64,000 bases of DNA from an uncultured Acidobacteriota bacterium (GTDB taxonomy: Bacteria; Acidobacteriota; Vicinamibacteria; Vicinamibacterales; Fen-181): positions 276,308-340,307 of the forward strand of contig CAVUTP010000001.1 in NCBI GenBank assembly GCA_963744445.1, in the 5' to 3' direction. A program made the translations under genes and the position numbers. Positions 13,234 through 36,564 of the stretch are shown piece by piece; position 1 is the first letter of the stretch, and every line of letters begins with the position of its first letter. The notes beneath the pieces were generated by a model. The model was not told where the DNA came from. It saw nothing but the letters and a program-made list of their open reading frames with translations, and did no database searches.

Positions 13234-13254
13234 GCGTTCAGACGGGGACAGGGT

Positions 13255-13422: not shown

Positions 13423-13540
13423 TGTCCGACCTCCGGTGAAGCGGGCCCGCGGCCCGTTTGCTTCATAAGACGGACCCAGAGAGGAAATGGTTCGCTTCGG
13501 GCTCATCCGAATCGCTCATCTGCGGCCGCCCACAGCTTTC

Positions 13541-13658: not shown

Positions 13659-13808
13659 CGTCTTCGCCCTGTTGAGACTGTCCGCAGGCTGTCCGTGGTT
13701 GCCCGGGGAACGCCGGTCCGCTAACATCGAGGGCTGCCCTTCAGCCATACTGTTCCAGCGGTAGAAATCACGGCCACGCCGGCCAATCGGGATCAGGAGC
13801 GACCGAGC

Positions 13809-14198
13809 ATGAATGCAGGTGCCCGAGTGCTCATCGTGGACGACGACCGGGACACGCTGACCCTGTACGCCTTCGCGCTCGGCGATTCGGGTTTGCTCGT
13901 GGACCAGGCCACGACCGGCGCGGAGGCCCTGGCAGCTGCACGGGCGCACCCCCCCGCGGTGATCGTGACGGATTTGACTCTCCCCGACGTCGATGGCATC
14001 GAGCTGTGCCGGGAGCTGCGGGTGGCGGCCGGTCCCGGCCTGTCGGGGCTGATCGTGCTGAGCGGCACCTCGGACGCCGGGCAGCACGATCGCGCGCGCC
14101 GGGCTGGCGCGACCGAGGTGCTGACCAAGCCGTGCCTGCCGGCTGACCTCGAGGGCGTCATCCGCGCGGCGCTCTCTTCCGCGGAATCGGGAGGCTAG
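13809..14198 (+). CDS. Stand-alone response-regulator receiver (CheY-like) protein
   Basis: 129 aa with receiver-domain signatures VLIVDDD, VIVTDLTLPDVDG, LSGTSD and LTKP. No output domain. Confidence 0.85.
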   Translation: MNAGARVLIVDDDRDTLTLYAFALGDSGLLVDQATTGAEALAAARAHPPAVIVTDLTLPDVDGIELCRELRVAAGPGLSGLIVLSGTSDAGQHDRARRAGATEVLTKPCLPADLEGVIRAALSSAESGG

Positions 14199-14203
14199 GG
14201 CCG

Positions 14204-15052: not shown

Positions 15053-15086
15053 GGATCGGGGATCAGGGTTCGGGGATCAGGGGTTC
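15051..15086 (+). repeat. Heptamer tandem array (A/G)GGGATC / AGGGTTC (5 units) carrying three GATC sites
   Basis: AGGGATC GGGGATC AGGGTTC GGGGATC AGGGGTTC, beginning inside the dam stop codon. GATC sites at 15054, 15061 and 15075. Confidence 0.9.
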
Positions 15087-15101
15087 CGCCTCCCTCGCGG
15101 C

Positions 15102-15127
15102 TTCTGCATTCTGCATTTTGCATTTCC
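15102..15127 (+). repeat. Heptamer tandem array TTCTGCA (about 3.7 units)
   Basis: TTCTGCA TTCTGCA TTTTGCA TTTCC, 26 nt upstream of the APC permease start codon. Confidence 0.9.
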
Positions 15128-15153
15128 GCCCGCCCGTCGTACCCTGACTGCCC

Positions 15154-16482
15154 ATGGCCCAGCTGCGCCAGCGCCTGACGCTGTTCGACATGACGATGAT
15201 TGCGATCGGCGGCACAATTGGCTCGGGGATCTTCCTCACCCCGTCGCTCATCGCCCACGCCCTGCCGTCGCCCGTGCTCATCCTGTCCGTCTGGCTTGCC
15301 GGCGGGCTGATGGCCATGGCCGGCGCGCTGACCTTCTCCGAGCTCGCGGCCTTGATGCCGCGCGCGGGCGGCCAGTACGTGTACCTGACCGAGGCGTACG
15401 GCGGACTCGTCGGCTTCCTCTTCGGCTGGGCCTACTTCCTCGTCTGCAACGCGGGCGGCCTCGGCGCGCTCAGCGTCGCCTTCGCGACCTACTTCGGGTA
15501 CTTCGTCCCCCTCGGAGCCACCGGGACCAAGCTCGTCGCCATCGGCGGCCTCCTCCTGCTGACCGGCATCAACGTCGTCGGCGTCAAGGCGGGGGCGATC
15601 TTCTCCGACGTGTTCACGGTCCTGAAGATCGGCGGGATCCTCGCCCTGGTGGTCGTGGGCCTCGCGCTCGGCTCGGCGCAGACGACCGACTTCGCGGCCG
15701 CGATCCCGGAAGTGCCGGGCGGCCTCGGGGGAGCCCTGGCGGCCGCGATGGTGGGCGTCCTCTGGTCCACGGGAGGCTGGCAGCACGCGACTTACGCCTC
15801 GGGCGAGATCAAGAACGCGCGCCGGACGCTCCCGCTCGCGATGGTGATCGGCACCGCCGCCGTGACCGTGATCTACCTCTCGGTAAACGTCGCCTACATG
15901 TTCCTCCTGACCCCGCAGGAAATTGCGGTGTCGCCCCGCGTGGCGGCCGACGCGGTGAGCCGCGTGCTCGGTCCGACAGGGGGCACGTTGATCTCACTCG
16001 CCATCTTCATCTCGACGTTCGGGGTCGTGGGAATCTACACGCTGACCGCCCCGCGCATCTACTTTGCCATGGCGAACGACGGGCTCTTCTTCCGGCGGGT
16101 GGCCGAGGTGCACCCCCGCTTCGAGACCCCCGCCTTCGCCATCGTCGCGCAGTCGCTGTGGGCGGTGGTACTGATCCTCTTCTGGGGCACCTTCGAGAAC
16201 CTGATCTCGTACGTCGTGTTCACCGACTGGATCTTCTTCGGCCTGGCCGCGGCGGCCGTGTTCGTCTTCCGGCGCCGCTGGCCCGATGCCGAGCGCACGG
16301 CGCGGGTGCCGCTCTACCCCCTGACGCCGCTCTTCTTCGTCGCCATGTCGGCGTGGTTCGTCGGCATGACGCTCGTCCAGCGCCCGGCGCAGGCATGGGC
16401 GGGGCTGGCGTTCCTCGCGCTCGGTGTTCCCGTCTATTTCTACTGGAAAGGGAAGCGTTCCGAATTGAGAATTGAGAATTGA
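15154..16482 (+). CDS. APC-family amino acid permease
   Basis: 442 aa, about 12 TM, N-terminal signature MTMIAIGGTIGSGIFLTP. The last residues (SELRIEN) and the stop codon are encoded by a GAATTGA heptamer array. Confidence 0.85.
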   Translation: MAQLRQRLTLFDMTMIAIGGTIGSGIFLTPSLIAHALPSPVLILSVWLAGGLMAMAGALTFSELAALMPRAGGQYVYLTEAYGGLVGFLFGWAYFLVCNAGGLGALSVAFATYFGYFVPLGATGTKLVAIGGLLLLTGINVVGVKAGAIFSDVFTVLKIGGILALVVVGLALGSAQTTDFAAAIPEVPGGLGGALAAAMVGVLWSTGGWQHATYASGEIKNARRTLPLAMVIGTAAVTVIYLSVNVAYMFLLTPQEIAVSPRVAADAVSRVLGPTGGTLISLAIFISTFGVVGIYTLTAPRIYFAMANDGLFFRRVAEVHPRFETPAFAIVAQSLWAVVLILFWGTFENLISYVVFTDWIFFGLAAAAVFVFRRRWPDAERTARVPLYPLTPLFFVAMSAWFVGMTLVQRPAQAWAGLAFLALGVPVYFYWKGKRSELRIEN

Positions 16483-16486
16483 GAAG
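16462..16486 (+). repeat. Heptamer tandem array GAATTGA (3.6 units)
   Basis: GAATTGA GAATTGA GAATTGA GAAGC. It supplies the last codons and the TGA of the permease gene, and ends 4 nt before the corrinoid gene ATG. Confidence 0.9.
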
Positions 16487-16490
16487 CAGA

Positions 16491-17142
16491 ATGTCGATCG
16501 ACAACGAGCTGCGGAACGCGGTGGTCGAGGGCGACGGCGCGGCCGCGGTGCGCCTGGTGCGGCAGCTCCTGGAGCGCGGAACGCCGGCCGACGCCATCCT
16601 GCAACGGTGCCTGGTCGCCGCCATGGACGAGGCGGGGCGCCGCTTCGAGGCGGGCGAGTTCTTCGTGCCGGAGCTGCTCGTGGCAGCCCGAGCCATGAAG
16701 GCCGCGATGGCCGTCCTCGATCCGCTGCTCGCCGGAACGGCGTCGCGCGCCGCCGGCCGCATCGCGATCGGCACGGTGCAGGGCGATCTGCACGACATCG
16801 GGAAGAACCTGGTGGCGACGATGCTCCGCGGAAGCGGCTTCGACGTGGTGGACCTCGGGTCGGACGTCACGCCCGAGCGCTTCGTCGCGGCAGCGCGGGA
16901 CGGCGCTCAGCTCATCGGCCTCTCGGCCTTGCTGACGACCACCATGCTCTCCATGAAGGAGGCGATCGTCCGCCCTCGACGCGGCCGGCCTGCGGCCGGG
17001 AGTCCGCGTGATGGTCGGCGGCGCCCCCCTGACGCCGCAGTATGCCCAGAGCATCGGCGCCGACGGGTTCGCCGACAACGCGGCCGCCGCCGTGACCCTG
17101 GCGCGCCGGCTGCTGGCCCAGTCGGCGGAGGCCTCCCGATGA
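16491..17142 (+). CDS. Cobalamin (B12)-binding corrinoid protein (MtaC/MtbC-like), frame broken near 16970
   Basis: B12-binding motif GDLHDIGKN plus LSALLTTTM in the first frame. The conserved end, ALDAAGLRPGVRVMVGGAPLTPQYAQSIGADGFADNAAAAV, is in the +1 frame and ends with TGA at 17140-17142. The span is not a multiple of 3. Confidence 0.8.
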
Positions 17143-18216
17143 CCGGCCGCGAACGCGTGCTGCTGGCCATGCGCCGACGGCAGCCCGATCGCCCGCCGTT
17201 CGACTTCTCGTGGGGCTTCTCGGAACCGCTCCTGGATCACTTTCGGGAGCGGACGGGCGCGGACAACCCCGACGACTACTTCGGGGCCGACACCAGGATC
17301 GTGCGAATCTCGCCCACCCGGCGGCCGTCCGACTTCTCGCCCTACCACTCGGAACTGCCGCCCGGCACCTGGCTGGACGAGTGGGGCGTGGGACACCAGC
17401 CGACCACGAGCCGCGAGCGCCATCACTCGCACCTCGAGGGTTTCATCTACCCGATGCTCGGGCTGTCTTCGCGCCAGGACGCGATGGACTACCCGCTGCC
17501 GGACGTGGACGCCGACTACCGGTACGAAGCGCTTCCCTGCCGGATTGGCGGAGATCCAGGGAGCGGGCCTCGCGGTCATGGCCGCCCTCGACTGCACGGT
17601 GTTCGAAGTCGCCTGGTACATGCGCAGCATGGAGCAGTTGCTGATGGACTTTGCCGACGGCAGCGAGTTCGCGGCAAGCCTCCTCGACCGCATCACGGCC
17701 AAGCGCGAGGTGCAGGCGGCGCGGTTCGCGGAACTCGGTGCCGACGTCATCTGCCTGGGCGACGACGTGGGGACGCAGCGCGGGATGTTGATGAGCGTCC
17801 GGATGTGGCGCGCGTGGCTCAAGCCTCGCCTGGCCCGCGTGGCGGCGGCGGCGCGGCGGGTGCGCCCGGACGTCCTGCTCTTCTACCACAGCGACGGCAA
17901 CGTCGCGGCCATCGTCCCGGACCTGATCGAGATCGGGATCGACATCCTCAACCCGGTCCAGCCGGAGTGCATGGACCCCGCCGCGCTGAAGTTTCAGTAC
18001 GGGGATCGCCTGTCGCTCTGGGGCACCATCGGGACGCAGTCCACCTTCCCGTTCGGCAGCGCCGAGGACGTGCGGGCAGAGGTCCGTGCCCGCATCGACA
18101 AGGCCGGCCGCGGGGGTGGCCTGTTCCTCGCGCCCACTCACATCGTCGAACCCGAGGTCCCGTTCGAGAACATCGTGGCGTTCGTGGAAGCGGTCAAGGC
18201 AGGCCAGCAGGGCTGA
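17139..18216 (+). CDS. Uroporphyrinogen-decarboxylase-family methyltransferase (MtaA/CmuA-like), frame broken near 17535-17541
   Basis: N-terminal part MTGRERVLLAMRRRQPDRPPFDFSWGF..., with an ATGA overlap to the corrinoid gene. The C-terminal part is in the frame of ORF 17545..18216 (AEIQGAGLAVMAALD...GDDVGTQRGMLMS...DILNPVQPECMD). Confidence 0.75.
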
Positions 18217-18326
18217 AGCCCTGCTCCGACCGATGCAACGGGGCCGAAGCGACGGCGAAAGTGGATGCGGCGCGGGGCTTTCTCGGTGTAACCTATCTGG
18301 CTGCCCTCGGTAGTTCCCTCTGGAGA

Positions 18327-19253
18327 ATGCACCTTATGACTGTCCGGCCGCGCGTAGCCATCGCCCTGATCGCGGTGCTGTTCGCAAGTGGCTGCTCGAT
18401 CAGGAAGATGGCGGTCAAGACGATGGCGGACGCCCTGTCGGAGGGCAGTTCAGGGTACACGACCGACAACGACCCGGAACTCGTGAAGGAAGCGCTGCCC
18501 TTCGGCCTGAAGACGCTCGAAGGCCTCCTGGCCGAGCTGCCCACCCACCGTCCCCTTCTGCGGTCGCTAGCGAGCGGGTTCACGTCGTACGCGGTGGCGT
18601 TCATCGCCCCTGAAATCCGCGCCCTCGAGGAGGTCGATCTCGAACGCTCCCGCGAGCAGCGTGTGCGGGCGCGACTGATGCTGATCCGGGCGCGCGATTA
18701 CGCCCTTCGGTCCCTGGAGGTCGCCTACCCCGGCTTCCGCAAGGCACTCGAGGAGGACCCGCTGAAGGCCGCTGCCCGGGTGAAGGCCGAGGACATCGAG
18801 GATCTCTACTGGGCGGCGGCGGCCTGGGGTTCGGCCATCTCGCTCGGGAAGGACCAGATGGGCCTCGTCGTCGAGGTGCCGCAGGTGGAGGCGCTGATCC
18901 GCCGCGCCTACACGCTGAACGACGCGTGGGACAACGGGTCGATCCACGAGTTCCTGATCGTGTTCGAGAGCCGCGGCGAGGCGTCGGGCGGCAGCTACAA
19001 GCGGGCGCGCGAGCATTTCGAGAAGGCGATGGCGATCTCGAAGGGCCGAAAGGTGGGCCCGCTGGTGGCGCTGGCCGAGAACGTGTCGCTGCAACTCCAG
19101 GATCGCAAGGAGTTCGAGGAACTCCTCGACCGCGCGCTGGCCTTCGATCCCGAGACCGCACCGGAAATTCGATTGGTCAACCTCATCGGTCAGCGCCGCG
19201 CGAAGCAACTCAAGGCGATGGCCGATCAACTCTTCGTGGAGGACGAGAAATGA
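18327..19253 (+). CDS. TRAP transporter TatT-component family lipoprotein (TPR-like)
   Basis: Lipobox LFASGC after MHLMTVRPRVAIALIAV. Helical-repeat protein ending ...RLVNLIGQRRAKQLKAMADQLFVEDEK. ATGA overlap with the downstream TRAP binding protein gene. Confidence 0.7.
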   Translation: MHLMTVRPRVAIALIAVLFASGCSIRKMAVKTMADALSEGSSGYTTDNDPELVKEALPFGLKTLEGLLAELPTHRPLLRSLASGFTSYAVAFIAPEIRALEEVDLERSREQRVRARLMLIRARDYALRSLEVAYPGFRKALEEDPLKAAARVKAEDIEDLYWAAAAWGSAISLGKDQMGLVVEVPQVEALIRRAYTLNDAWDNGSIHEFLIVFESRGEASGGSYKRAREHFEKAMAISKGRKVGPLVALAENVSLQLQDRKEFEELLDRALAFDPETAPEIRLVNLIGQRRAKQLKAMADQLFVEDEK

Positions 19254-20268
19254 AGCGGGTATTCCTGGCCGTGACCGCAGCCGCCTGCCTGCTGGCGACG
19301 AGCGGCAGCGCTGCGGCGCAGCAGGTGATCAAGATTGCGACCGTTGCCCCGGAGGGGACGCCCTGGCACGACATGCTCCAGGACCTCAACGCCAGGTGGA
19401 AGAAGGTCTCGAACGGGGCGATTTCGCTTCGCATCTACCCGAACGCCACACAGGGCGACGAGCCGGACTACATCAGGAAGATTCGGATCGGGCAGCTGCA
19501 GGCCGCGGCGCTGACCAGCGTGGGGATGGAGACGATCGCGGCCGAGGCGAGCGCGCTGTCGATCCCGTTCCTGTTCGACTCGTGGGAAGAGCTGGACTAC
19601 GTCCGGGATCGCATCGGCCCACGGATCAAGAAGGCTCTCGAGGACAAGGGGTTCGTGGTCCTCAACTTCGGTGATGCCGGCTGGGTGCACTTCTTCACCG
19701 CCAAGCCCGCGCCCAGGCCGGCGGATCTGAAGAAGCTGAAGCTCTTCACGTGGGGGAACAACCCGGCCACCGAGGAGATGTACGAGGGAGCCGGCTTCGA
19801 CGTCGTCCCGCTGGCGGCGACCGAGATCCTGCCTGCCCTGCAAACCGGGAAGATCCAGGCCTTCCCCTCGCCGCCCATCATAGCCGGGGCTTCGCAGTGG
19901 TTTGCCCTGGCCAAGAACATGACCGACGTGAAGTTCGCGGCTGTCGTGGGAGGCACGATCATCTCCAAGACCGTGTGGGACAAGATCGACCCGGGGCTGC
20001 GGCAGAAACTGATGAAGGAAGCCGAGGACGTGGCGATGCTGTACCGGCCGAGGATCCGCAAGATGGAGGCCGATGCCATTGCCGAGATGAAGAAACACGG
20101 TCTCCAGGTGGTCGCCGTGCCGCCCGACGCCTTGCGCGAGTGGAAGCAGACCGGGGAGAACGTCTACCCAAGCTGCGCGGGCAGTACATCCTGGCGCCCG
20201 ACTTCGACGAGGTGATGAAGCTCGTCAAGGAGTTCCGGGCGAAGCCGTCGGCCAAGCCCGCGAAGTAG
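19250..20268 (+). CDS. TRAP transporter substrate-binding protein (DctP/TatP-like), frame broken near 20169
   Basis: Signal peptide MKRVFLAVTAAACLLATSGSAAAQ, then KIATVAPEGTPWH. The C-terminal KLRGQYILAPDFDEVMKLVKEFRAKPSAKPAK is in the frame of ORF 19750..20268. The shift is at TACCCAAGC. Confidence 0.8.
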
Positions 20269-20280
20269 CCGCAGCTAAAA

Positions 20281-20301
20281 CAGGATTCAGGATTCAGGAT
20301 A
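20281..20301 (+). repeat. Heptamer tandem array CAGGATT (3 units)
   Basis: CAGGATT CAGGATT CAGGATA, between the TRAP binding-protein stop and the TRAP permease start. Confidence 0.9.
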
Positions 20302-20352
20302 CCGGGCCCGACGTGACTACGCTGCCCTCCCGTGGGGCCCACACACGCTCCG

Positions 20353-22248
20353 ATGACTGACATGGCCGACACGCCCGTCCCGCGCCAGGCTCAACCCCGC
20401 GCCTGGCACCGCCTCGAAGACGCCATCGGCATCGGCGCGCTGGTGGCGCTGGCGCTGCTGCCCCTGACCGAGATTGTCGTCCGGCCCCTGATCGGGATCG
20501 GGGTGGCCAACTCGGTCGGCATGGTGCAGCACCTGACGATGTGGGTGGCGTTTCTCGGGGCGATGATTGCCTCACGGCACCGCCGCCACCTGGCGCTTGC
20601 CACGGCCACGTTCCTGCCGACCTTGTTCCGCCCATTTGCCGACATCGTCTCCGCCGTTGCCGCGGCCGGCGTTGGCGCCGTGCTCGCCTGGGCCTCGGCG
20701 CAACTCGTTCAGGCAGAGCGCTTGAGCATCCAGACCCTCACTGGAGGGCTGCCAGTCTGGGTGGCGATGACGATCATCCCCTTCGGGTTCGCGGTCGTCG
20801 CCCTGCGGGCCTGGTGGCAGGCCGGCGTGGCACACGCCCCCGAGGGCGCGCAGCCGCCACCGCCCTTCTCTCCTGGGCTGGCGTGGACGCGCCGGGCTGT
20901 CGTGGGCCTCGGCGTCGTCGCCATCGTGGGCTTGGGATTCGCGTCCGAGGCCACGGCGGCTTCCGCCCGATGGCCGTTGATCGGCGGCCTGCTCGCGGCG
21001 ACCGTCCTCGGCGCCCCCATCTTCGTGACACTGGGCGGGGTGGCGCTGGTGCTCTTCTACGCCGACGCCATCCCTTTGGCGGCGGTGGCCAGCGAAACCT
21101 ACAAGATCGTGTCCTCGCCCACGCTCCCGACCATCCCGCTCTTCACGATGGCGGGCGTGCTGCTGGCGGAAGGCGGCACGCCGACGCGCCTTGTTCGGTT
21201 GTTCCAGGCTCTTGCCGGGTGGCTGCCGGGCGGGACGGCGGTGGCGGCGATTCTCGTCTGCGCGTTCTTCACGACCTTCACGGGCGCCTCCGGCGTGACG
21301 ATCCTGGCTCTCGGCGGCCTGCTGCTGCCGGTGCTGATGAAGGACGTGTACTCGGAACGGTTCTCGCTCGGTGCGATCACGTCGGCCGGCAGCATCGGCC
21401 TGCTGTTCGTCCCCAGCCTCCCCGTGATCCTGTACGCCATTTCCGCGGGGACTCCGGTCAACGAGATGTTCGCCGCGGCGATGGGCCCCGGCGTCGTCCT
21501 CGTCGGCCTTGTCTCCCTGTACTGCTTGTGGGAGGGCATCCGGCGCGGCAGCCGGTGGCGCACGCCCGATGTCGGCGAGATAGCCGCGGCAGCCTGGGCG
21601 GCGAAATGGGAGGTCGTGCTGCCGGTGGTGGTGTTCGTCAGCCTGTTCGGGGGCTTCGCCTCCACGGTGGAGGCGGCCGCCATCACGTTCTCCTACGCCT
21701 TCGTCATCAAGTGCCTCGTCTACCGGGACGTGACGATCACGCGAGGGCTGCCGCACGTGCTGCTCGAGTCGGCCGTCCTGGTTGGCGGCGTCCTGATTAT
21801 CCTCGGCTGCGCGCTGGGCCTCACCGGCTACCTGATCGACGCCGAGATCCCGATGCGCGGCGCCGACTGGGTCAAGGCGACCATCCAGTCGAAGTGGGCC
21901 TTCCTCCTCACGCTGAACGTGTTCCTGCTGATCGTCGGCTGCCTGATGGACATCTTCTCGGCGATCTTCGTGGTCGTCCCGCTGATCCTGCCCATCGCCG
22001 CGGCGTTCGACATCCACCCGCTCCACCTCGGGGCAATCTTCCTGACGAACCTGGAACTGGGCTACCTGACGCCGCCGGTGGGCCTGAACCTGTTCCTGGC
22101 ATCGATGCGCTTCCGCCGGAGCATGTTCGAGGTCGTGCGCGCCGTACTGCCGTTCCTGGCCGTGCAGGCCGTCGCGGTCCTGCTCGTCACCTTCGTCCCG
22201 GCGCTGAGCGTCAACTTCTCCGCCTGGCTGATGCGACTGCTGGGATAA
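20353..22248 (+). CDS. TRAP transporter fused small/large permease (DctQ-DctM fusion)
   Basis: About 630-aa polytopic protein. The N-terminal 4-TM DctQ-like part is followed by a DctM-like part (TFTGASGVTILALGGLLLP, GYLTPPVGLNLF). The start is uncertain (20332, 20353 or 20362). Confidence 0.85.
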   Translation: MTDMADTPVPRQAQPRAWHRLEDAIGIGALVALALLPLTEIVVRPLIGIGVANSVGMVQHLTMWVAFLGAMIASRHRRHLALATATFLPTLFRPFADIVSAVAAAGVGAVLAWASAQLVQAERLSIQTLTGGLPVWVAMTIIPFGFAVVALRAWWQAGVAHAPEGAQPPPPFSPGLAWTRRAVVGLGVVAIVGLGFASEATAASARWPLIGGLLAATVLGAPIFVTLGGVALVLFYADAIPLAAVASETYKIVSSPTLPTIPLFTMAGVLLAEGGTPTRLVRLFQALAGWLPGGTAVAAILVCAFFTTFTGASGVTILALGGLLLPVLMKDVYSERFSLGAITSAGSIGLLFVPSLPVILYAISAGTPVNEMFAAAMGPGVVLVGLVSLYCLWEGIRRGSRWRTPDVGEIAAAAWAAKWEVVLPVVVFVSLFGGFASTVEAAAITFSYAFVIKCLVYRDVTITRGLPHVLLESAVLVGGVLIILGCALGLTGYLIDAEIPMRGADWVKATIQSKWAFLLTLNVFLLIVGCLMDIFSAIFVVVPLILPIAAAFDIHPLHLGAIFLTNLELGYLTPPVGLNLFLASMRFRRSMFEVVRAVLPFLAVQAVAVLLVTFVPALSVNFSAWLMRLLG

Positions 22249-28300: not shown

Positions 28301-28960
28301 GTGGAGTTGATCCAGCAGTTTTTCAGCAACGTCTACAACGTTCCCGAACTGATCCGCCTGGTCGGCCTCGTCGGCCTCGTGTTCATCATCTTCGCGGAGA
28401 CCGGCCTGATGGTCGGGTTCTTCCTGCCGGGCGACTCGCTGCTCGTGACGGCCGGGCTGTTCGCCGCGCGGGGTGACCTCGAAATCGCCTGGTTGATCCC
28501 GAGCCTGCTGGCCGCCGCGATCGTGGGCAATGGCACCGGCTACTACATCGGCCGGCGTGCCGGGCGGGCGCTCTACAGCCGACCCAACTCGTTCTTCTTC
28601 AGGCGCCAGCATCTCATCAGCACCCACGAGTTCTACGAGCGGCACGGCGGCAAGACGATCGTGCTCGCGCAGTTCATGCCCATCGTCCGCACCTTCGCGC
28701 CCGTCGTGGCCGGCGCCGCGGAGATGACCTACCGGCGGTTCGCGACCTTCAACGTGGTCGGGGCGATCCTGTGGATCAACTCGATGACACTCACGGGCTA
28801 CTACCTCGGCCTGGCGATCCCCGGCATCGAGGAACGCATCCACATCGTGGTGGCGGTGGTGATCTTCCTGTCGCTGCTGCCGGGGATCCTCGCCTACCTT
28901 CGGTCGAAGCTGCGCGACAGGCGCGCGGCGGCGGGATCGGGGGCGGGGGTGGATCGGTAG
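28301..28960 (+). CDS. DedA family (SNARE-associated) membrane protein
   Basis: 219 aa with the typical DedA blocks FAETGLMVGFFLPGDSLLVTAG and GKTIVLAQFMPIVRTFAPVVAG. Confidence 0.85.
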   Translation: MELIQQFFSNVYNVPELIRLVGLVGLVFIIFAETGLMVGFFLPGDSLLVTAGLFAARGDLEIAWLIPSLLAAAIVGNGTGYYIGRRAGRALYSRPNSFFFRRQHLISTHEFYERHGGKTIVLAQFMPIVRTFAPVVAGAAEMTYRRFATFNVVGAILWINSMTLTGYYLGLAIPGIEERIHIVVAVVIFLSLLPGILAYLRSKLRDRRAAAGSGAGVDR

Positions 28961-29565
28961 GGTCGCCGGCGGGAGCCCGCCCACAGCCTCGCGGCAAACA
29001 GAACCCCGAGCACGATGGCGTAGAGCCGCGGCTCGCTGACGTCCGCTTTGACCAGCCACCAGAAGTGCACCACGCCCAGGACGGCCGCCAGGTACACCAG
29101 CCGGTGCAGGGCGCGCCAACGGGCGCCGCCAAGGCGGCGGATCATCCCGGCGGTAGAAGTGGCCGCCAGCGGCACCAGCAGGGCGAATGCGGCGAAGCCC
29201 GCGGTGATGAACGGGCGCTTCGGGATGTCGCGCAGGATGTCCGGCCAGGAAAAGAACTGGTCGAACCAGAGGTACGTGAACAGGTGCAGGGTCGCGTAGA
29301 AGAAGGCGAAGAGGCCCAGCATCCTGCGGAACCTGATGAGAGCGTTGGCGCCGGTCAGCGCCCGCAGCGGCGTCACGGCGAGCGTCCCGAGGAGGAACCG
29401 CAGGGTCCAATCGCCGGTCGCGTGGGTAACCGCTTCCAGTGGGTTGGCACCGAGGCGGCCTGCCCCAGTCCGCCAGGCAAGCCACGCGACCGGGACGAGC
29501 GCCAGGAGGAACAGCGCCGCCTTGATCCACGCCACCCGGCTGCTCGTGGCGCGCCCCGTCGGCAT
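28894..29565 (-). CDS. msrQ: Protein-methionine-sulfoxide reductase heme-binding subunit MsrQ (YedZ)
   Basis: 223-aa 6-TM ferric-reductase-like protein (GDWTLRFLLGTLAVTPLR, FFYATLHLFTYLW, HRLVYLAAVLGVVHFWW), immediately downstream of msrP. Confidence 0.85.
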   Translation of the reverse strand: MPTGRATSSRVAWIKAALFLLALVPVAWLAWRTGAGRLGANPLEAVTHATGDWTLRFLLGTLAVTPLRALTGANALIRFRRMLGLFAFFYATLHLFTYLWFDQFFSWPDILRDIPKRPFITAGFAAFALLVPLAATSTAGMIRRLGGARWRALHRLVYLAAVLGVVHFWWLVKADVSEPRLYAIVLGVLFAARLWAGSRRRPYRSTPAPDPAAARLSRSFDRR

Positions 29566-30540
<975 letters not shown>

Positions 30541-30583
30541 TTATTCCGCGACGGTGGTTGCCTTCGTCTCAAGAGGCGCACGG

Positions 30584-32212
30584 TCAGCGGCCGTGCTTTC
30601 GCTCGACCGCGCGTTCCCGGGCGGGCGGCGGCGCCCGCCTCAGACGCGCCTGCGTGCCTTCTTGCGCCCCGCGCCAGGCCAGGTTCACCTCCGGCATGTC
30701 CGCGCCGGCCGTGAGCCCTGCCGCGTCGCGCGGCGCATCGGCTCCCGGTGCCAGCCGGAAGTCGCCGCGGGTCGCATCCACGAACAGGCGTTCGAAGTCC
30801 CGCACCGGCGGGAAGAGGTTCCCCGGTGGATAGAGCCGCTCCTGGCCGCCGGCGAGGACGTTCCCCGTGAAGACGGCACCGGGAAAGTAGGCGTCGAGGG
30901 TATCAGCCCCCACCCCCCGGTCGCTGCCGTGCACACCGTACTCGTTGTGCCGCACGACATTGAAGCGGAAGGCAAACGGCCGGATGGGCGTCGGCCGGTC
31001 GCGCGACCCGCCGTAAGCCGAGATGACGTTCCCCGAGTGCAGCACGGTGTTGTGCTCGACGGTCACGTCAGCCGGGCCGTCCCCCATTCGCAGGAACTCC
31101 CCGTTGCCGCCCCAGCGGGCACCGTCCACGTCGTAGAGGAGGTTGTCGGAGACCACGATCCTGCGCGCGGTTCCGCTCGCATTCGGGCTGTCATGACCGA
31201 GCAGGTTGATTGCCGCGGCCACACGCCGGAGGATGTTGAAGCGGACGGACACGTCCTCGACCGTGGACCAGGGTGCACCGCCATCCTGGTTCCGCGGCGT
31301 GAGCAGCAGTGCGTATCCCGGCTGGGCGCCGCCCCAGTTGTTTTCCATGAGGTTGCCCTCGATCCGGACGGCCCGGGCGTTCTTCAACTCGAGCAGGTTC
31401 TTCACCTGCCAGCGCGTGCCGCGCCATTCCTCCGGCCGCGTGAGGTGGTTGCCCCTGATCCAGATGTCGGTCGGAACGAGGTTCGGGGTCCTGGGGTCGG
31501 CGCCGCCGAAGAGGATAGCCTGGCCGGCGGCCTCCAGGCGGTTATTCAGGATCGTGTAGGGACCAGGGCCGTTCCACCCGGCGATGGCCTGGCTGTCCTG
31601 TCCCGCGGACTTGATGTCCACGATCAGCGAGTTGAGAATGCGCGTGGCTCCACTGTTGAGGGCAATGCCGCGCTTCTGCCCGGCACCGGGGTCGCCGCGG
31701 ATATAACACCGGTCGAAGACGAGATCTTCCGGGATGCTCCCCGCGGTCTGGGACACGCCGCCGTCGCCCAGGCGGACGATTTCCCCGGCTCCGCCCGCGT
31801 TGGCCTGGAACTCGACGAGCACGACCCGCCAGTAACGAGCACCCGGTGCCGTGCGAAGCGCTGGCTCGCCGTTGGGCGATCGCAGCTTGGGCAGGAGCGG
31901 TGCGTGGCCCGCCGAGATGCGAGTGGACTCGTCGGGGGCCTCCGACTCCGGGATCGACGAACGGACGGTAATGAACCGGTCGTCGTCGCCGCGCCGGGCA
32001 GGCAGCACGAAGTTGCCGACGAAGGTCGCGCCGGCCTCCAGCTGGATCTCGTCTCCCGGCTGGGCGGCATCCAGCACGGCTTGGAGGTCGCGGCCAGGGC
32101 CGACGAGGACGACCGACGCGCGCCCGCCGACGGCCGACGGGCTGGCAAGGCAGAGCAAGCCTGCCGCGAGAGCCGCGAGCAGCCGGGTGGGCCGATGTCG
32201 GAACATGCGCAA
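30584..32212 (-). CDS. Secreted right-handed parallel beta-helix repeat protein (polysaccharide lyase/hydrolase-like fold)
   Basis: Signal peptide MRMFRHRPTRLLAALAAGLLCLASPSAVGG. Repetitive beta-helix-like turns (IRGNHL, IEGNLMENNWGG, VSDNLLYDV, VEHNTVLHSGN, VVRHNEYG). Lies 13 nt downstream of the PEP-CTERM-like mini-gene. Confidence 0.7.
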   Translation of the reverse strand: MRMFRHRPTRLLAALAAGLLCLASPSAVGGRASVVLVGPGRDLQAVLDAAQPGDEIQLEAGATFVGNFVLPARRGDDDRFITVRSSIPESEAPDESTRISAGHAPLLPKLRSPNGEPALRTAPGARYWRVVLVEFQANAGGAGEIVRLGDGGVSQTAGSIPEDLVFDRCYIRGDPGAGQKRGIALNSGATRILNSLIVDIKSAGQDSQAIAGWNGPGPYTILNNRLEAAGQAILFGGADPRTPNLVPTDIWIRGNHLTRPEEWRGTRWQVKNLLELKNARAVRIEGNLMENNWGGAQPGYALLLTPRNQDGGAPWSTVEDVSVRFNILRRVAAAINLLGHDSPNASGTARRIVVSDNLLYDVDGARWGGNGEFLRMGDGPADVTVEHNTVLHSGNVISAYGGSRDRPTPIRPFAFRFNVVRHNEYGVHGSDRGVGADTLDAYFPGAVFTGNVLAGGQERLYPPGNLFPPVRDFERLFVDATRGDFRLAPGADAPRDAAGLTAGADMPEVNLAWRGAQEGTQARLRRAPPPARERAVERKHGR

Positions 32213-32224
32213 GCCGTTAAGGAC

Positions 32225-32512
32225 TCAGGTCGTTCGACGAACCGCCGCGGCCAAGCCCAACAGCAACCCTCCCACCATGACGAGCGCCAGCTTCTCCGGA
32301 ACCGACCGGAGGGGATCGAGTCCCACCGGACTCGCCACGGAGCCGCCTGCGCGTGCCGGGACGTCGCCCGACGCGACCGTATACTCAGGGGACCGGGACG
32401 GCCCATCCGGAGGCGGCACGGCGGGAGTGGACCGCACCCCGAGCGTCACGAACATCATCGCGAGCAGCACGAGCCGGGTTGCGCCTGCCGCCCTCTTCCA
32501 GGTTGTCGCCAA
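32225..32512 (-). CDS. Small secreted protein with PEP-CTERM-like C-terminal sorting signal (candidate exosortase substrate)
   Basis: Proposed TTG start at 32512, preceded by GAGGGAGAG. Signal-like N-terminus (M)ATTWKRAAGATRLVLLAMMFVTLGV, a Pro/Ser-rich middle, and the C-terminus SVPEKLALVMVGGLLLGLAAAVRRTT (PEx motif, TM helix, basic tail). An alternative ATG lies at 32458. Confidence 0.5.
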   Translation of the reverse strand: MATTWKRAAGATRLVLLAMMFVTLGVRSTPAVPPPDGPSRSPEYTVASGDVPARAGGSVASPVGLDPLRSVPEKLALVMVGGLLLGLAAAVRRTT

Positions 32513-32590
32513 GATTGCTCTCCCTCTCAGACGCCGTGTACTTCCTCTCAGACGCCACACACTCGAAAGTCGGTTGCGCTGGCACCGGCT

Positions 32591-32605
32591 ACAAGTGCCG
32601 TGCCA
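32591..32605 (-). promoter_or_regulatory. Sigma-54-like promoter TGGCACG-N4-TTGT
   Basis: The reverse strand reads GTGGCACGGCACTTGTAGCC, with correct -24/-12 spacing but a -12 of TTGT instead of TTGC. It lies about 80 nt upstream of the PEP-CTERM-like mini-gene. Confidence 0.5.
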
Positions 32606-32737
32606 CCGCAGCCGGCTCGTCGTTGCGTCCGACCGCCGCGGTGCCGGCGCGACGCACGGCCGTGCTTCAACCTCACCACCAGGCGCCTCGCGTGCTACCA
32701 TCGAAAAATCGGGCCGTCAACCAGACAACAGCACTGT

Positions 32738-33448
32738 ATGAACGAGCATCGTGACCACTGCGCGAAACTGCTCTCGCTCGCCGTGCACGAGTTCCGGTCT
32801 CCCGTGGCGGTGGTCTCCGGTTACCTGCGGCTGCTCATGAAGCACTTCGGGGACAACCTCACCGAGAAGCAGCTGCACCTGTTGCAGGAGAGCGAGAAAT
32901 CGTGCGGCGCGCTGTCGAAGCTGCTATCCGATCTGAGCGAGTTGGGGCAGCTGGAAGCGGCCGGTATCGCGATGCGGCGCGAGCCCGTGGCGATCTTCGA
33001 GCTGCTGCGGGAGGTGGCCTCGAACGTGCATGAGGGTAGGGACCGCGGAGTCAGTCTCGAGGTCACGGCCCCCGAAACCGACGTCCTTGTGATGGGTGAT
33101 CGCGCCCGGCTCTCCGCGGCCCTCGCCTCGGTGATCCACGCGGCGTTGCGCGAGCGGCCCGGGGCGGCGCGGCTGACGGCCTGCGGCGTGGTGGAACGCG
33201 GGCAGGCCCCGCACGTCGTCATCTCGGTTGGTGACGGGGACCTCGCGCCCTCGTCGCCCGACCCCCACGGCGCCCAAGGCACGGCGTTCGATGAGTACCG
33301 CGGCGGTTTGGGTTTCCGCCTGCCGATCGCCGCGCGCGTCCTGGAAGGGCACGGCGGCCGGCTGCACTCCCCCGTGACGGAGCGGGGACACCTGGCGATC
33401 GTGCTGTCGCTGCCGCTGACATCCCCTGACGCGGAGAAGACCGGGTGA
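32738..33448 (+). CDS. Soluble histidine kinase core (HisKA plus degenerate HATPase_c), no sensor domain
   Basis: 236 aa. H-box LAVHEFRSPVAVVSGY and G2-like box YRGGLGFRLPIAARVLEGHGG. Its stop overlaps the GTG start of the downstream response regulator. Confidence 0.75.
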   Translation: MNEHRDHCAKLLSLAVHEFRSPVAVVSGYLRLLMKHFGDNLTEKQLHLLQESEKSCGALSKLLSDLSELGQLEAAGIAMRREPVAIFELLREVASNVHEGRDRGVSLEVTAPETDVLVMGDRARLSAALASVIHAALRERPGAARLTACGVVERGQAPHVVISVGDGDLAPSSPDPHGAQGTAFDEYRGGLGFRLPIAARVLEGHGGRLHSPVTERGHLAIVLSLPLTSPDAEKTG

Positions 33449-34959
33449 AAAAACCTTACGTGGCGATCGTGGACGACGACTCGGGGTTCTCGAACTACCT
33501 GCGCACGTTCCTGTCGCTACGCGGGTACGACACGCGCACGTACTCCCGCGGCGACGAACTGCTCGCGGCCATCAGGCAGGCAGACCCGCCCGACATCGTG
33601 CTGCTCGACGTGATGATGCCAGGGCTCGACGGCCTGGCCACCCTGCGTGCGCTGAAGGCGGCCCGCCCCGAGACGCAGGCGATCATGCTCTCCGGCCGCG
33701 AGCAGCCCTCCACCATCGTGGAGGCCGTGCGGCTGGGCGCCGCCGACTACGTGGTCAAGCCGGACGACCCCGAGGGCCTGGGCGAGATCGCGCTCGACGT
33801 GGCCATCAAGAACGCGCTCGAGAAGAATCGCCTGGTCAGCGAGCTGACGGAACTGAAGCAGCAGCTGAGCGACGACCAGGATCGCGCCTTCCTGTTCTGG
33901 GGCAACAGCGAGCAGATGCGCCAGATCGCGACGGTCGTCGAGCAGGTGGCCGACAGCGACGTGACGGTGCTCATCCGCGGCGAGAGCGGCGTCGGCAAGG
34001 AGCTGGTGGCGCGGGCGGTTCATCAGCGCTCGCCGCGGCACGCGAAGCCGCTCGTCCGGGTGAACTGCGCGGCCCTGCCGACCGAGCTGCTGGAGAGCGA
34101 GCTGTTCGGGCACGAGAAGGGCGCGTTCACCGGCGCGGCGAACACGCGCATCGGCAAGTTCGAGCAGGCCGACGGCGGCACGCTGCTGCTCGACGAAATC
34201 GCCGAGATGAAGGCCGCCCTGCAAGCCAAGCTGCTGCATGTGCTCCAGGACGGGGAGTTCACGAAACTTGGCAGCAACAAGCGGCAGAGCGTGGACGTGC
34301 GGGTGCTCGCCGCCACCAACCGCGATCTCGAGGCGATGATGATCGCCGGGGACTTCCGCGAGGACCTCTACTACCGGCTGAAGGTGATCGAGGTGATGGT
34401 GCCCGCGCTTCGCGAGCGCCGGGACGAGATCCCGCACCTGACCGACTTCTTCATCGCAAAGTACAGCCGGAAATACAACCGGCCGGCCCCGCCGACCTCC
34501 GACGAGCTGCGCGAGCTGTTCCTGCGGCACGAGTGGCCGGGCAACATCCGCGAGCTGGAGAATATGATCAAGCGGCTCGTCATCCTTCAGGACGAGCAGA
34601 TGATCATCCGCGAGCTGCGAATGGCGGCCGCCCGGACCAGTGTCCCGGCGTACGCGTCGGCCGTCGCCGCGCCGGTGGCGGTGGGCGTGGGTGCAGCCTC
34701 GGGGTACGTGCCCGGCCCGGCCGAACCCATCCCAGCCGAGGCCGATGACGAGCTCGTGGTCGAGGCGGTCGAGCCGCCGGAGGAACCGCGGACGCTCTCC
34801 GACATCGCGCGGGCAGCGGCGATGAAGGCAGAGCGCGCGGCCCTCGAACAGACGCTGGACCAGGTGCGATGGAACCGCCGCAAAGCGGCTCAGCTCCTCG
34901 GCGTGAGCTACAAGACGCTCCTCAACAAGATCAAGGAGTGCGGGATCAGCCAGAAGTAG
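33445..34959 (+). CDS. Sigma-54-dependent response regulator (REC, AAA+, Fis-type HTH; NtrC family, PrsR-like candidate)
   Basis: Receiver domain VAIVDDD...VLLDVMMPGLDG; Walker A GESGVGKE; intact GAFTGA; LLLDEI; ELENMIKR; C-terminal HTH RKAAQLLGVSYKTLLNKIKE. Confidence 0.9.
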   Translation: MKKPYVAIVDDDSGFSNYLRTFLSLRGYDTRTYSRGDELLAAIRQADPPDIVLLDVMMPGLDGLATLRALKAARPETQAIMLSGREQPSTIVEAVRLGAADYVVKPDDPEGLGEIALDVAIKNALEKNRLVSELTELKQQLSDDQDRAFLFWGNSEQMRQIATVVEQVADSDVTVLIRGESGVGKELVARAVHQRSPRHAKPLVRVNCAALPTELLESELFGHEKGAFTGAANTRIGKFEQADGGTLLLDEIAEMKAALQAKLLHVLQDGEFTKLGSNKRQSVDVRVLAATNRDLEAMMIAGDFREDLYYRLKVIEVMVPALRERRDEIPHLTDFFIAKYSRKYNRPAPPTSDELRELFLRHEWPGNIRELENMIKRLVILQDEQMIIRELRMAAARTSVPAYASAVAAPVAVGVGAASGYVPGPAEPIPAEADDELVVEAVEPPEEPRTLSDIARAAAMKAERAALEQTLDQVRWNRRKAAQLLGVSYKTLLNKIKECGISQK

Positions 34960-35071: not shown

Positions 35072-35087
35072 TGGCACCTCCCTTGCT
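35072..35087 (+). promoter_or_regulatory. Sigma-54 (-24/-12) promoter TGGCAC-N5-TTGCT
   Basis: GTGGCACCTCCCTTGCTGAAC matches the consensus TGGCAC-N5-TTGCW exactly. It lies about 29 nt upstream of the ATG at 35116 and next to two sigma-54 activator genes. Confidence 0.7.
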
Positions 35088-35115
35088 GAACAGCCTTGCG
35101 GTTCAGTTGAAGAAC

Positions 35116-36564
35116 ATGACCGATCAGCGCATCACCATCATGATCGTCGGGGCCGACGCGGCCAGCAGCCAGATCATCGGGGACGCGATCGCCCGTCACC
35201 AGCTGGCGCACACGATCCTCGCCCCGGCCGAGCAGGCGGTGCGGCGCTACGAGGCCGAGCGCCCGGCGGCGGTCGTACTCGATGCAGACGCCGGGGGATT
35301 GCCGCCCCTGCGCGAGTTGCGCGCCATCGACCGTGACGTTCCGATCCTCATCGCCGCCTCCGAGATAGGGGCGCGGGCGGTCATCGAGGCGATGGCGTAC
35401 GGCATCGCGGGCCTCCTGAGGAAGCCGCTGGCCGAAGCCGAGGTCGCGGAGTCGCTCGGCCGTGCCCTCGACAACAGGCGGGTGGCCGCCGAGATTGCGT
35501 CGCTCCGCAGGGAGCTCGGGTCCGCCTCCCAGCACCGGCTGGTGCTCGGGTCCAATGCCCGCATGGCCGAGGTCGCGAATCTGTTGGAACGTGCGGCTGA
35601 CACGGACGCGACGGTGTTGATCGAGGGAGAGGCCGGCACCGGCAAGGACCTGGTCGCGAGGGTCATCCACGATCTTTCGACGCGGCGCGAAGGCCCCTTC
35701 GTGAAAGTCAACTGCGCGAGCCTCGCGGAGGGTGCGTTGGAGTCGGCGCTGTTCGGCTTCGAGCGAGGCGCCTTTTGGGGCGCGGTGCAGCACAAGCCGG
35801 GCAAGCTGGATTTCGCGCACCACGGCACGCTGTTCCTCGACGAGGTGGCCGCCATGGCGCCGGCGCTCCAGGCCAAGCTCCTGCTGGTCCTGCAGGAGGG
35901 GGCCTACTCCCGCATGGGGAGCATCGCCCGGGTGCCCGTCGACGCGCGCATCGTCGCCGCCACCTCCACCGACCTTGCCGCCGCGGTCGGCGCCGGGGCG
36001 TTCCGCGAGGACCTCTACTTCAGGCTCAACGTCATCGCCGTGTTCCTTCCGCCGCTGCGGGAGCGCCGCGAGGACATTCGCCCGCTGACCGAACACTTCC
36101 TCCGGATCTTCTCGGTGCACTGCAACAAGGGCCGGCCGACGGTCGCGGAGGACACGCTGCAGCTGCTGGCCGAGCACGAGTGGCCCGGCAACGTGCGCGA
36201 ACTGCAGAACACGGTCCGCCGCCTCGTACCGCCGGGCGGGGAGGCGGAAGTCCGGCGCGAGTTGCAGCGCGCGATCGCCTCGCGCCTCTCGCAACCGAAG
36301 CCCGCGAGGCGCGAGCGGCGCGCTCAGGCCGGCATCGCAACGCCGGCGCAAGCGGAGCCGGCAACGCCGGTCCCGGCGACCGGCACCCTGAAGGAGATCG
36401 CACGCGCCGCCGCCCGCGCGGCGGAACGCGCGGCCATCTTCAAGGTCCTGCAGCGCACGCGATGGAACCGGAAGGCCGCTGCCGAGTTCCTCGGGATCAG
36501 CTATAAGGCGCTGCTCTACAAGATTCGGGAGAACGGCCTGGACAAGCCTGCGCCGACGTCATGA
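35116..36564 (+). CDS. Second sigma-54 activator-family regulator with atypical GAFWGA loop and degenerate receiver acidic pocket
   Basis: Start set at MTDQRITIMIVGAD because a sigma-54 promoter lies at 35072-35087, inside the longer ORF. Walker A GEAGTGKD, FERGAFWGAV in place of GAFTGA, LFLDEV, and HTH RKAAAEFLGISYKALLYKIRE. Confidence 0.8.
   Translation: MTDQRITIMIVGADAASSQIIGDAIARHQLAHTILAPAEQAVRRYEAERPAAVVLDADAGGLPPLRELRAIDRDVPILIAASEIGARAVIEAMAYGIAGLLRKPLAEAEVAESLGRALDNRRVAAEIASLRRELGSASQHRLVLGSNARMAEVANLLERAADTDATVLIEGEAGTGKDLVARVIHDLSTRREGPFVKVNCASLAEGALESALFGFERGAFWGAVQHKPGKLDFAHHGTLFLDEVAAMAPALQAKLLLVLQEGAYSRMGSIARVPVDARIVAATSTDLAAAVGAGAFREDLYFRLNVIAVFLPPLRERREDIRPLTEHFLRIFSVHCNKGRPTVAEDTLQLLAEHEWPGNVRELQNTVRRLVPPGGEAEVRRELQRAIASRLSQPKPARRERRAQAGIATPAQAEPATPVPATGTLKEIARAAARAAERAAIFKVLQRTRWNRKAAAEFLGISYKALLYKIRENGLDKPAPTS

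Follow-up and report, generated by a model that had tools for sequence, protein, structure and literature searches.

This study examined a short control region and the genes around it in a 64-kb stretch of an Acidobacteriota genome (the window, that is, the whole stretch of DNA analysed). On the minus strand of the window, a small open reading frame (ORF) for a 95-aa protein, here termed the mini-protein, is preceded by the sequence TGGCAC-GGCAC-TTGTA (32590..32605). Comparison with related loci indicates that this site behaves as a genuine sigma-54 (-24/-12) promoter; the comparative conservation is the decisive evidence, and this is the best-supported part of the analysis. Judging from its homologues, the small ORF is a real, conserved gene of an Acidobacteriota mini-protein family that carries no existing name. 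The C-terminal tail of the mini-protein is, on sequence grounds, exosortase-signal-like in its three-part architecture and not a PEP-CTERM member. The window has a G+C content of 70%, and its source genome (labelled G000) is 6.4 Mb in size and rated 78.5% complete; the other G labels denote related genomes, and the L labels denote examined loci. A 225-nt spacer (32513-32737) separates the small ORF from a plus-strand histidine kinase gene, which is followed by the gene of an enhancer-binding protein (EBP1). Downstream of the small ORF, the minus strand carries the gene of a protein of ~540 aa, predicted to form a beta-helix, and then msrP/msrQ homologues.

The promoter sequence GTGGCACGGCACTTGTA lies on the minus strand at 32606-32590, wherein TGGCAC occupies 32605-32600, the five spacer nucleotides read GGCAC, and TTGT occupies 32594-32591. 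The GG of the -24 element is found at 32604-32603 and the G of the -12 element is retained at 32592, with exact GG-N10-G spacing; the consensus C of the -12 element is replaced by T at 32591. This T sits 78 nt upstream of the start codon of the mini-protein gene, in agreement with a preliminary description of the locus that had placed a correctly spaced -24/-12 site about 80 nt before the small ORF. The pattern TGGCAC-N5-TTG occurs twice in the window, against 0.21 occurrences expected, and both sites are intergenic and upstream of genes. The genome also contains rpoN (C2:299756, 222.8 bits). Genome-wide, TGGCAC-N5-TTGC was counted 26 times, compared with 3-13 times for other spacings, and 3 of the 40 TGGCAC-N5-TTG sites lie inside long open frames with high third-position G+C according to a crude 600-nt open-frame check that used no gene annotation; one such site stands before a pilin gene. 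The enrichment at the correct spacing, together with the position of the sites mostly outside long frames, indicates that the organism uses canonical sigma-54 promoters. Two points weigh against assigning the mini-gene site to this class: its -12 element is without the consensus C, and across the genome, TTGT and TTGA are no commoner at this spacing than at others. Without the comparative data, the site would therefore be a weak call on its own.

The comparison covered 20 tabulated loci, which comprise five metagenome contigs and 15 species genomes that represent three of the four families with carriers; a 21st locus, that of G028, the sole f8 member, was checked apart from this table. TGG[CT]A[CT]-N5-TTG[A/T] was found upstream of the small gene in all 21 carrier loci, which represent at least four families. 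At motif position 15, where the -12 consensus has C, the 20 tabulated loci show A in 14 cases, T in six, and C in none. When the five closest loci were aligned, the promoter block was invariant, and the spacer around it contained substitutions as well as indels that are not multiples of three. In G014, G033, and G050, the kinase-EBP1 pair faces msrP directly, and neither a mini gene nor a -24/-12 site was found there. A decayed locus was observed in G005 (L104, G005:C1:130500-135500, about 3257-3500), where the mini gene is lost and the sigma-54 site TGGTACGCCACTTGTA is kept beside kinase-EBP1; the beta-helix gene there is reduced to fragments matching residues 263-313 and a C-terminal piece, and the site lies upstream of this remnant. 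Since the site is absent where msrP faces the kinase and is retained in G005 upstream of the beta-helix remnant, the promoter element belongs to the small gene and not to msrPQ, and msrPQ was rejected as its true target.

The same evidence bears on the alternative that the -24/-12-like sequence is a chance match or the site of another protein, and that the small gene is transcribed from an unrecognised housekeeping promoter. The missing -12 C and the unenriched variants agree with this alternative. Among the sequencing runs listed as containing this DNA, none is of RNA, and four DNA runs from one freshwater-sediment study cover part of it. However, the site persists in 21 of 21 loci across at least four families with diverging flanks and disappears where the gene is absent, its GG-N10-G spacing is exact, and no sigma-70-like promoter was found in 28800-32800. 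The genome encodes rpoN, and NtrC-type activators with the GAFTGA loop are found in the neighborhood. A non-promoter origin of the sequence is thus highly improbable, and the sigma-54 promoter proposed in the preliminary description is supported.

The mini-protein gene (32225..32512, minus strand) was delimited by translation, orthologues, and profile search; it starts with TTG at 32512 and ends with a stop codon at 32227-32225. The N-terminus of the product is signal-like, with K6, R7, and R13 followed by LVLLAMMFVTLGV, and would form either a signal peptide or an N-terminal TM segment. An EYTVAS motif is found within the Pro/Ser-rich core. VPEK occupies residues 71-74, a 17-residue transmembrane helix, LALVMVGGLLLGLAAAV, spans residues 75-91, and RRTT forms residues 92-95 directly before the stop. 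All of the features listed earlier for this ORF (signal peptide, Pro/Ser core, VPEK, 17-residue helix, and RRTT) were recovered in the translation. The TTG/GTG start and the Shine-Dalgarno sequence are conserved among close relatives. A longer ORF beginning at ATG 32701 (158 aa) was rejected, because indels in its upstream part break the triplet frame between close relatives, and the one conserved start is TTG/GTG with its Shine-Dalgarno sequence.

Homologs of the mini-protein were readily found. A word-indexed search yielded 27 close homologues, one of which is labelled Acidobacteria bacterium, and a profile search of 1.84 billion representatives yielded 245 clusters at E <= 0.001. Nearly all of the new profile matches inspected (147 of 148) are 53-202 aa long and aligned at the C-terminus; one long protein was matched internally. 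The tail follows the consensus L-[R/P/S]-[D/E]-x-A-A-M-V-L-V-G-[T/S/G]-x-L-I-G-L-A-A-A-V-R-R-[A/T]-[A/T]-stop, in which V80, G81, L84, G86, A89, A90, V91, R92, and R93 are invariant in an 18-sequence alignment. A second short motif, EYTVAS or VAVQRV, is present in the middle of the protein. Seven orthologues are 31-51% identical to the mini-protein of the window, and some close homologues reach 84%. In the last 16 codons, third positions are only 39% identical, and where two sequences share a residue, they encode it by different codons in two-thirds of the pairs. As the residues are invariant while the third codon positions vary, the constraint on the tail acts on the protein. The gene is present as a single copy in G000 and in each carrier genome, and is always located beside the kinase/EBP1 module.

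The preliminary description regarded the tail as a PEP-CTERM-style signal with Lys in place of the second Pro. The PEP-CTERM domain is defined by a near-invariant Pro-Glu-Pro, is modular, and is found in a median of eight proteins per genome (PMC1569441). In the present genome, at least seven PEP-CTERM proteins score over cut-off, and an XrtA-class exosortase gene is located on another contig, C3 (TIGR03109, 215.5 against a cut-off of 208); within the 64-kb window, no exosortase gene was found. The TM helix of the mini-protein is followed by basic residues at the extreme C-terminus, as in PEP-CTERM tails, with a cluster of two Arg only. VPEK, the 17-residue helix, and RR are spaced as in the PEP-CTERM tails of the host, and the tail aligns in register with these, for example VPDPASMVLFGSGLVGLAAAVRR.

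Profile searches gave a different result. PF07589 and TIGR02595, the latter being the model against which the C-terminus was to be scored, returned no match for the mini-protein in Pfam and NCBIfam at E <= 10, and the mini-protein is absent from the genome-wide PF07589 matches at E <= 1. A lineage-specific model was built from 29 PEP-CTERM tails of relatives and run with filters off on 65,075 ORF tails of the genome. This model retrieved six of the seven known PEP-CTERM proteins of the genome with scores of 35-59 bits; for the mini-protein, the score was 8.3 bits (E = 4.8) and the rank 35th of 65,075, amid arginine-rich junk. Among 105 family members, 10 showed weak PF07589 matches (best E = 0.014) and three showed TIGR02595 matches, all with E of 0.014 or worse. 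The sub-threshold matches of these members fall mostly on PEP-CTERM-type models, and 10 members also match the LPXTG anchor model below threshold, which implies that much of the likeness is generic to a TM helix with basic residues. The motif before the helix reads RDE (the commonest), PET, PEK, SEK, SET, PDT, or PGT/PGS across the family; PEK is confined to the closest clade, Pro-Glu-Pro is not conserved, and the PGT/PGS sub-clade is without even the acidic residue. Furthermore, the tail occurs once per genome and on mini-proteins only, unlike a modular sorting signal, and the mini gene never adjoins an exosortase gene. All of these findings argue against processing by an exosortase. That the mini-protein is a bona fide PEP-CTERM protein, with Lys tolerated for the second Pro and with standard exosortase sorting, is therefore very unlikely and is largely refuted by the hidden Markov model and motif tests, although the spacing of the tail, the presence of XrtA with its PEP-CTERM proteins, and the weak PF07589 matches in the family are in its favor. 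The score below noise, named beforehand as evidence against the signal when combined with a genome lacking any exosortase, was indeed obtained; the exosortase is present.

The tail may still be read by an exosortase in another form. Outside the family, the neighbours of the mini-protein in a protein language model are PEP-CTERM, VPDSG-CTERM, VPEID-CTERM, and XrtJ-target clusters. An exosortase-family gene was detected in 14 of 15 carrier genomes, compared with 29 of the 61 genomes sampled in the order, which are related and do not represent independent samples; the co-occurrence is thus suggestive only. The carrier without such a gene, G006, is 86% complete and consists of 450 contigs. One carrier speaks against a link with exosortases: G004 (100% complete, 6% contamination) contains the family, no PF07589 protein, and only a divergent exosortase-like gene. 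From these data, the tail could be a dedicated, divergent signal presented to the XrtA-class exosortase, to which we assign somewhat less than an even chance.

Alternatively, and with a probability only slightly lower, the mini-protein may remain membrane-bound and associate with the polysaccharide or regulatory machinery. In a more specific form, which we consider rather unlikely, the mini-protein would persist as a small protein of the inner membrane that has one or two TM segments and whose C-terminal helix is packed on a conserved membrane partner. This partner might be a component of polysaccharide polymerisation or export, or an unknown sensor that feeds the sensor-less kinase. The promoter and operon would be read in the same way, and induction by EBP1 would then provide feedback or an accessory subunit. 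Small membrane regulators can be encoded beside two-component systems, and GxxxG-type motifs are associated with helix packing; the small-xxx-G-xxx-A pattern of the tail would suit such packing. The helix is much more conserved than the motif before it, with nine invariant residues in proteins that are otherwise 30-50% identical, and the tail is under selection at the protein level. A stable membrane protein would also fit the single copy per genome, the absence of the tail from larger proteins, the constant position beside kinase/EBP1 and never beside an exosortase gene, the lack of a sensor or TM domain in the kinase, and the failure of all curated sorting-signal models. However, few residues would be exposed to the cytoplasm (~12 at the N-terminus and RRTT at the C-terminus), which makes it difficult to envisage how the mini-protein could directly touch a soluble kinase. 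G014, G033, and G050 possess the kinase-EBP1 module and no mini gene, which indicates that the mini-protein is not obligatory for signalling, and the register shared with local PEP-CTERM tails and the exosortases of 14 of 15 carrier genomes are not accounted for by this explanation.

Other exosortase-related genes were noted in the genome. A divergent exosortase/protease-like gene on contig C13 was considered as a dedicated partner of the mini-protein and was rejected, since its distribution (G000, G001, G024, and G042) departs from that of the mini family. Its product (L005, G000:C13:8611-10746) is 95-96% identical to that of G001:C1:1650635-1652744, from a genome of a different genus, and is best matched by an XrtE/VPEID-type model under cut-off. 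This identity is far over the ~45% of the mini-proteins, and could reflect recent transfer or contamination. A second exosortase homologue on C3 (L002-L004, G000:C3:6942-7705) is split over three frames (6942-7358, 7354-7512, and 7508-7705) by either frameshifts or assembly errors; PEP-CTERM genes adjoin it at C3:1274 and C3:6282. On contig C9 (about 5380-20536), at least four ORFs of G000 encode VPD(A/G)-type tails, such as VPDAAATLLLLGMSLTGLAAAKRRWQ and VPDGGSLVTLLGIALIGLAGARRFMK, which score 12-18 bits with PEP-CTERM models and may represent a variant sorting class resembling VPDSG-CTERM.

The gene downstream of the mini gene (30584..32212, minus strand) is predicted by AlphaFold2 and Foldseek to encode a secreted right-handed parallel beta-helix protein of ~540 aa. 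It starts with TTG at 32212, 12 nt past the mini-gene stop, or with ATG at 32206, 18 nt past it. The preliminary description had placed a co-oriented, secreted beta-helix protein 13 nt downstream, and the structural model bears out this assignment, with the gap measured as 12 or 18 nt. No match above noise was found in Pfam/NCBIfam, and a sequence search of the PDB returned 6kfn only (E = 0.05). The AlphaFold2 model has a mean pLDDT of 84.5 and a pTM of 0.86, and its N-terminal 29 residues are of low confidence and signal-peptide-like. Using Foldseek, 97 PDB matches were obtained at E <= 0.001, down to 1.7e-7, and the top structural matches are PL6 alginate lyases, chondroitinase B, GH136 lacto-N-biosidases, and phage tailspike depolymerases. 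The downstream protein is thus probably a polysaccharide lyase or hydrolase, as far as a predicted fold can indicate. It resembles PL6-type enzymes (PDB 8bwk, 7o7t, and 1dbg) in its right-handed parallel beta-helix, which is predicted with good confidence, with a TM-score of up to 0.56 (query-normalised), but shares only 10-15% sequence identity with them and has no Pfam/NCBIfam match.

A beta-helix gene follows the mini gene in G002, G019, G054, G039, G004, L047, L049, and L060-L063, and does not follow it in G001, G006, and L048. Considering the 12-18 nt gap and the lack of a terminator-like site between the two genes, co-transcription of the mini and beta-helix genes is likely here. In G002 (L027:1492-4155), the beta-helix gene and the following msrP homologue form one 887-aa open frame with no stop between them, possibly as a fusion or through a missed stop codon. 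The msrP that faces the kinase in G014, G033, and G050 carries a Tat-type RRREF signal. The sequence comparison gives the mini and beta-helix cassette the look of an insertion between the regulators and msrPQ.

On the plus strand, the kinase gene is followed by the genes of EBP1, a second activator (EBP2), and a degenerate GGDEF protein, and then by a polysaccharide locus. The kinase (32738..33448) is a short, soluble protein of 236 aa that matches HisKA and, weakly, HATPase_c; sensor and TM domains are lacking. EBP1 (33445..34959) is an NtrC-type activator with a receiver domain, an AAA+ domain containing GAFTGA, and a Fis-type helix-turn-helix, as assigned by domain matches. This divergent arrangement of the mini locus and the kinase and enhancer-binding protein genes, described previously from the window, was confirmed, and the kinase is also the divergent neighbour of the mini gene in G001, G006, G019, G288, L047-L049, and L060-L063. 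EBP1 orthologues with 84-97% receiver-domain identity adjoin the mini gene wherever it occurs; the module is found without it in the three loci mentioned above (L103, L105, and L106 in G014, G033, and G050). EBP1 is therefore, as a conserved neighbour of the mini gene with a canonical GAFTGA loop, more likely than EBP2 to activate the mini promoter.

EBP2 (35107..36564, plus strand) is also an NtrC-type activator, with the loop GAFWGA instead of GAFTGA. Between the tandem activator genes lies a canonical sigma-54 promoter, TGGCACCTCCCTTGCT (TGGCAC-N5-TTGCT; 35072..35087, plus strand), 19 nt before the likely EBP2 start at 35107. This position reads TTGCT in all nine loci examined (the window and, at the equivalent place, L042-L049). 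A canonical sigma-54 promoter (TTGCT, EBP2) is thus retained in each locus together with a non-canonical one (TTG[A/T], mini gene), and EBP2 itself appears from its upstream sequence to be under sigma-54 control, which would create a cascade. GAFWGA in the sigma-54-contacting loop occurs only in this genome; L047, the closest metagenome relative, has GAFSGA, and the other orthologues examined have GAFTGA. Co-evolution of the EBP2 loop with the odd -12 element was rejected, because orthologues with the same promoter have GAFTGA.

A k-mer search upstream of both sigma-54 promoters in eight loci gave no conserved activator-binding motif, which counts against the proposed activation; the shared k-mers are coding-sequence or kinase-promoter blocks only. 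A candidate extended -10 element of the kinase-activator operon, TGCTACCAT (32693..32701, plus strand), lies 37 nt ahead of the kinase start codon, ATG. At this position, close relatives show no change in the block GATGGTAGCACGC (minus strand), and TGnTAnnAT is present at the matching place in G001, G006, G019, L048, and L049. The block thus looks like an extended -10 promoter element for the kinase operon.

The spacer contains two further elements that had been considered regulatory. In the predicted 5' leader of ~67 nt (32513..32579, minus strand), which is defined by an inferred transcription start, the direct repeat GGCGTCTGAGAGG is found at 32556-32544 and 32535-32523. The preliminary description was right that the second copy lies at the ribosome-binding site, where it overlaps the Shine-Dalgarno sequence GAGGGAG; the two copies begin 21 nt apart and not 22 nt. 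No further copy occurs in the 6.4-Mb genome, and the repeat is kept partly, in the closest relatives only. It is a genuine duplication of local extent that takes in the ribosome-binding site, and is visible directly in the sequence; Tandem Repeats Finder makes no call on it. The predicted fold of the leader RNA (-21 kcal/mol, z = +1.26) is not better than that of shuffled sequences, and an Rfam scan of 32100-32850 yielded nothing meaningful. The second element, the perfect palindrome GCACGGCCGTGC (32654..32665, strand-neutral), is present as described, 48 nt and not about 55 nt upstream of the -24 element. Perfect 12-nt palindromes occur 42 times in the window (0.65 per kb), with ~0.14 expected per 225-nt spacer, and this one is degraded or missing in the four closest relatives. 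Its proposed role as an activator operator was rejected on the basis of this chance frequency and the lack of conservation.

Taken as a whole, the following explanation of the locus is moderately probable. The spacer 32513-32737 would control divergent transcription. The sensor-less kinase and EBP1 are probably expressed from a housekeeping-type (extended -10) promoter on the plus strand; on the minus strand, the sigma-54 promoter would drive a small operon for the mini-protein and a PL6-like, glycan-cleaving beta-helix enzyme, with possible readthrough into msrPQ. Phosphorylated EBP1 would bind upstream and remodel the sigma-54 holoenzyme both at the canonical EBP2 promoter (TTGCT) and at the mini-gene promoter, which has A or T for the consensus -12 C throughout the lineage. 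The result would be a small regulatory cascade heading an XrtA-type exopolysaccharide locus. The mini-protein would be exported by Sec, and its hyperconserved C-terminal helix (small-xxx-G-xxx-A), ending in RR, would hold it in the inner membrane.

The neighbouring polysaccharide locus is, from its gene content, of the XrtA/PEP-CTERM type. Its genes include those for a PEP-CTERM-system outer-membrane protein homologue, a chain-length determinant and tyrosine kinase, a priming transferase, a flippase, an ATPase, glycosyltransferases, a Wzy-like ligase, and two AsnB-type amidotransferases. Two XrtA-system markers score over cut-off, TIGR03013 (482 against 393) and, marginally, TIGR03015 (326 against 324.5), and matches under cut-off were obtained with TIGR03016, TIGR03007, TIGR03097, and TIGR03108. 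A third sigma-54-like site, TGGTACCTCCCTTGCT, is located at 59632-59647 (plus strand), just past a GT4-AsnB fusion gene and upstream of a glycosyltransferase/AsnB pair. Judging from this site, part of the polysaccharide cluster may itself be sigma-54 dependent.

Sigma-54 control of PEP-CTERM genes is already known. A sigma-54 motif was found upstream of 99 of 167 proteobacterial PEP-CTERM genes, at a mean distance of 71 nt from the translation start (Haft et al. 2006, PMC1569441), and was linked to the activator PrsR and the transmembrane kinase PrsK (PMC1569441). For pepA of Aquincola tertiaricarbonis, a -24/-12 promoter was mapped and RpoN dependence was shown (Xia et al. 2023, PMC9850573). 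The tie between an exosortase substrate and sigma-54 regulators, put forward in the preliminary description, is therefore not new in itself, having been predicted in PMC1569441 and demonstrated in PMC9850573; the XrtA type of the adjoining exopolysaccharide locus agrees with that description. The present locus resembles the PrsK/PrsR and pepA systems in its -24/-12 promoter before the gene of a small exported protein (78 nt here, compared with a mean of 71 nt), and the PrsK/PrsR system in its NtrC-type receiver/AAA+/Fis activator and histidine kinase beside polysaccharide genes. In contrast to those systems, it belongs to Acidobacteriota, has two tandem activators of which the second is sigma-54-driven, and shows TTG[A/T] rather than GC at the -12 element of the mini promoter. 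EBP1 and EBP2 score 362.1 and 296.5, respectively, against the PrsR cut-off of 502.6. The kinase is a 236-aa soluble protein and not a transmembrane PrsK; it has only the HisKA and weak HATPase_c matches, and no PrsK-specific model appears among the best 25 of 37 NCBIfam matches. The locus thus seems to work like the Prs system, yet its parts fall outside the corresponding models, as EBP1 scores too low for PrsR, the kinase is a soluble protein, and Pro-Glu-Pro is missing from the target.

Similar mixed relations were found for the tail. The mini-protein shares with PEP-CTERM proteins a signal-like N-terminus, a short polar motif, a Gly-containing TM helix, and a basic C-terminal cluster; XrtA is encoded in the same genome, and the polysaccharide locus at which the mini gene is located is of the XrtA type. 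It differs from them in that its tail is under every model cut-off with Pro-Glu-Pro unconserved, its basic cluster is RR plus T/A instead of an Arg/Lys run, its gene is single-copy with the tail on 53-202-aa proteins only, and its helix is near-invariant whereas that of PEP-CTERM is looser. PF27850 (named Targ_of_XrtJ in the ESM Atlas) also comprises Acidobacteriota proteins of very small size, in which a hydrophobic segment at the N-terminus and a TM tail at the C-terminus flank a short middle part. The PF27850 cluster is among the language-model neighbours at 0.81, which is below the level at which the tool offers more than a lead, and is taken as a resemblance only. The genome's exosortase differs from the XrtJ system in being XrtA-class (TIGR04199, 47 against a cut-off of 200), and the mini gene is not beside an exosortase gene.

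In sum, this study describes a mini-protein family with an invariant tail, a proposed tandem-activator cascade, and a lineage-wide non-consensus -12 element, all of which are new here. It is tempting, if doubtful at present, to regard [R/P/S]-[D/E]-x-x-x-hVhVG[GST]xL[IL]GLAAAVRR[TA][TA]-stop as a new class of C-terminal membrane tail that acts as a PEP-less exosortase signal or as a membrane partner, and to regard the two promoters as a differently responding pair. If so, the class would be carried by one dedicated mini-protein per genome at XrtA-type polysaccharide loci of Acidobacteriota. As a membrane partner, it would couple polysaccharide assembly to the sensor-less kinase/EBP1 module, and the canonical and variant promoters would respond differently to activators, for example in basal leakiness or activation threshold. 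Processing of a tail without Pro-Glu-Pro would bear on what exosortases recognise, and the conserved non-consensus -12 element beside a canonical promoter may provide an in-locus internal control for the behavior of sigma-54 promoters. Acidobacteriota are abundant in soil and sediment and are genetically hard to study. Sigma-54 control of exported proteins of exosortase-type systems has been worked out only in Proteobacteria, and the locus described here would be an analogous circuit in Acidobacteriota. Moreover, ~245 clusters of 'hypothetical' mini-proteins gain a defined regulatory and genomic context for their annotation.

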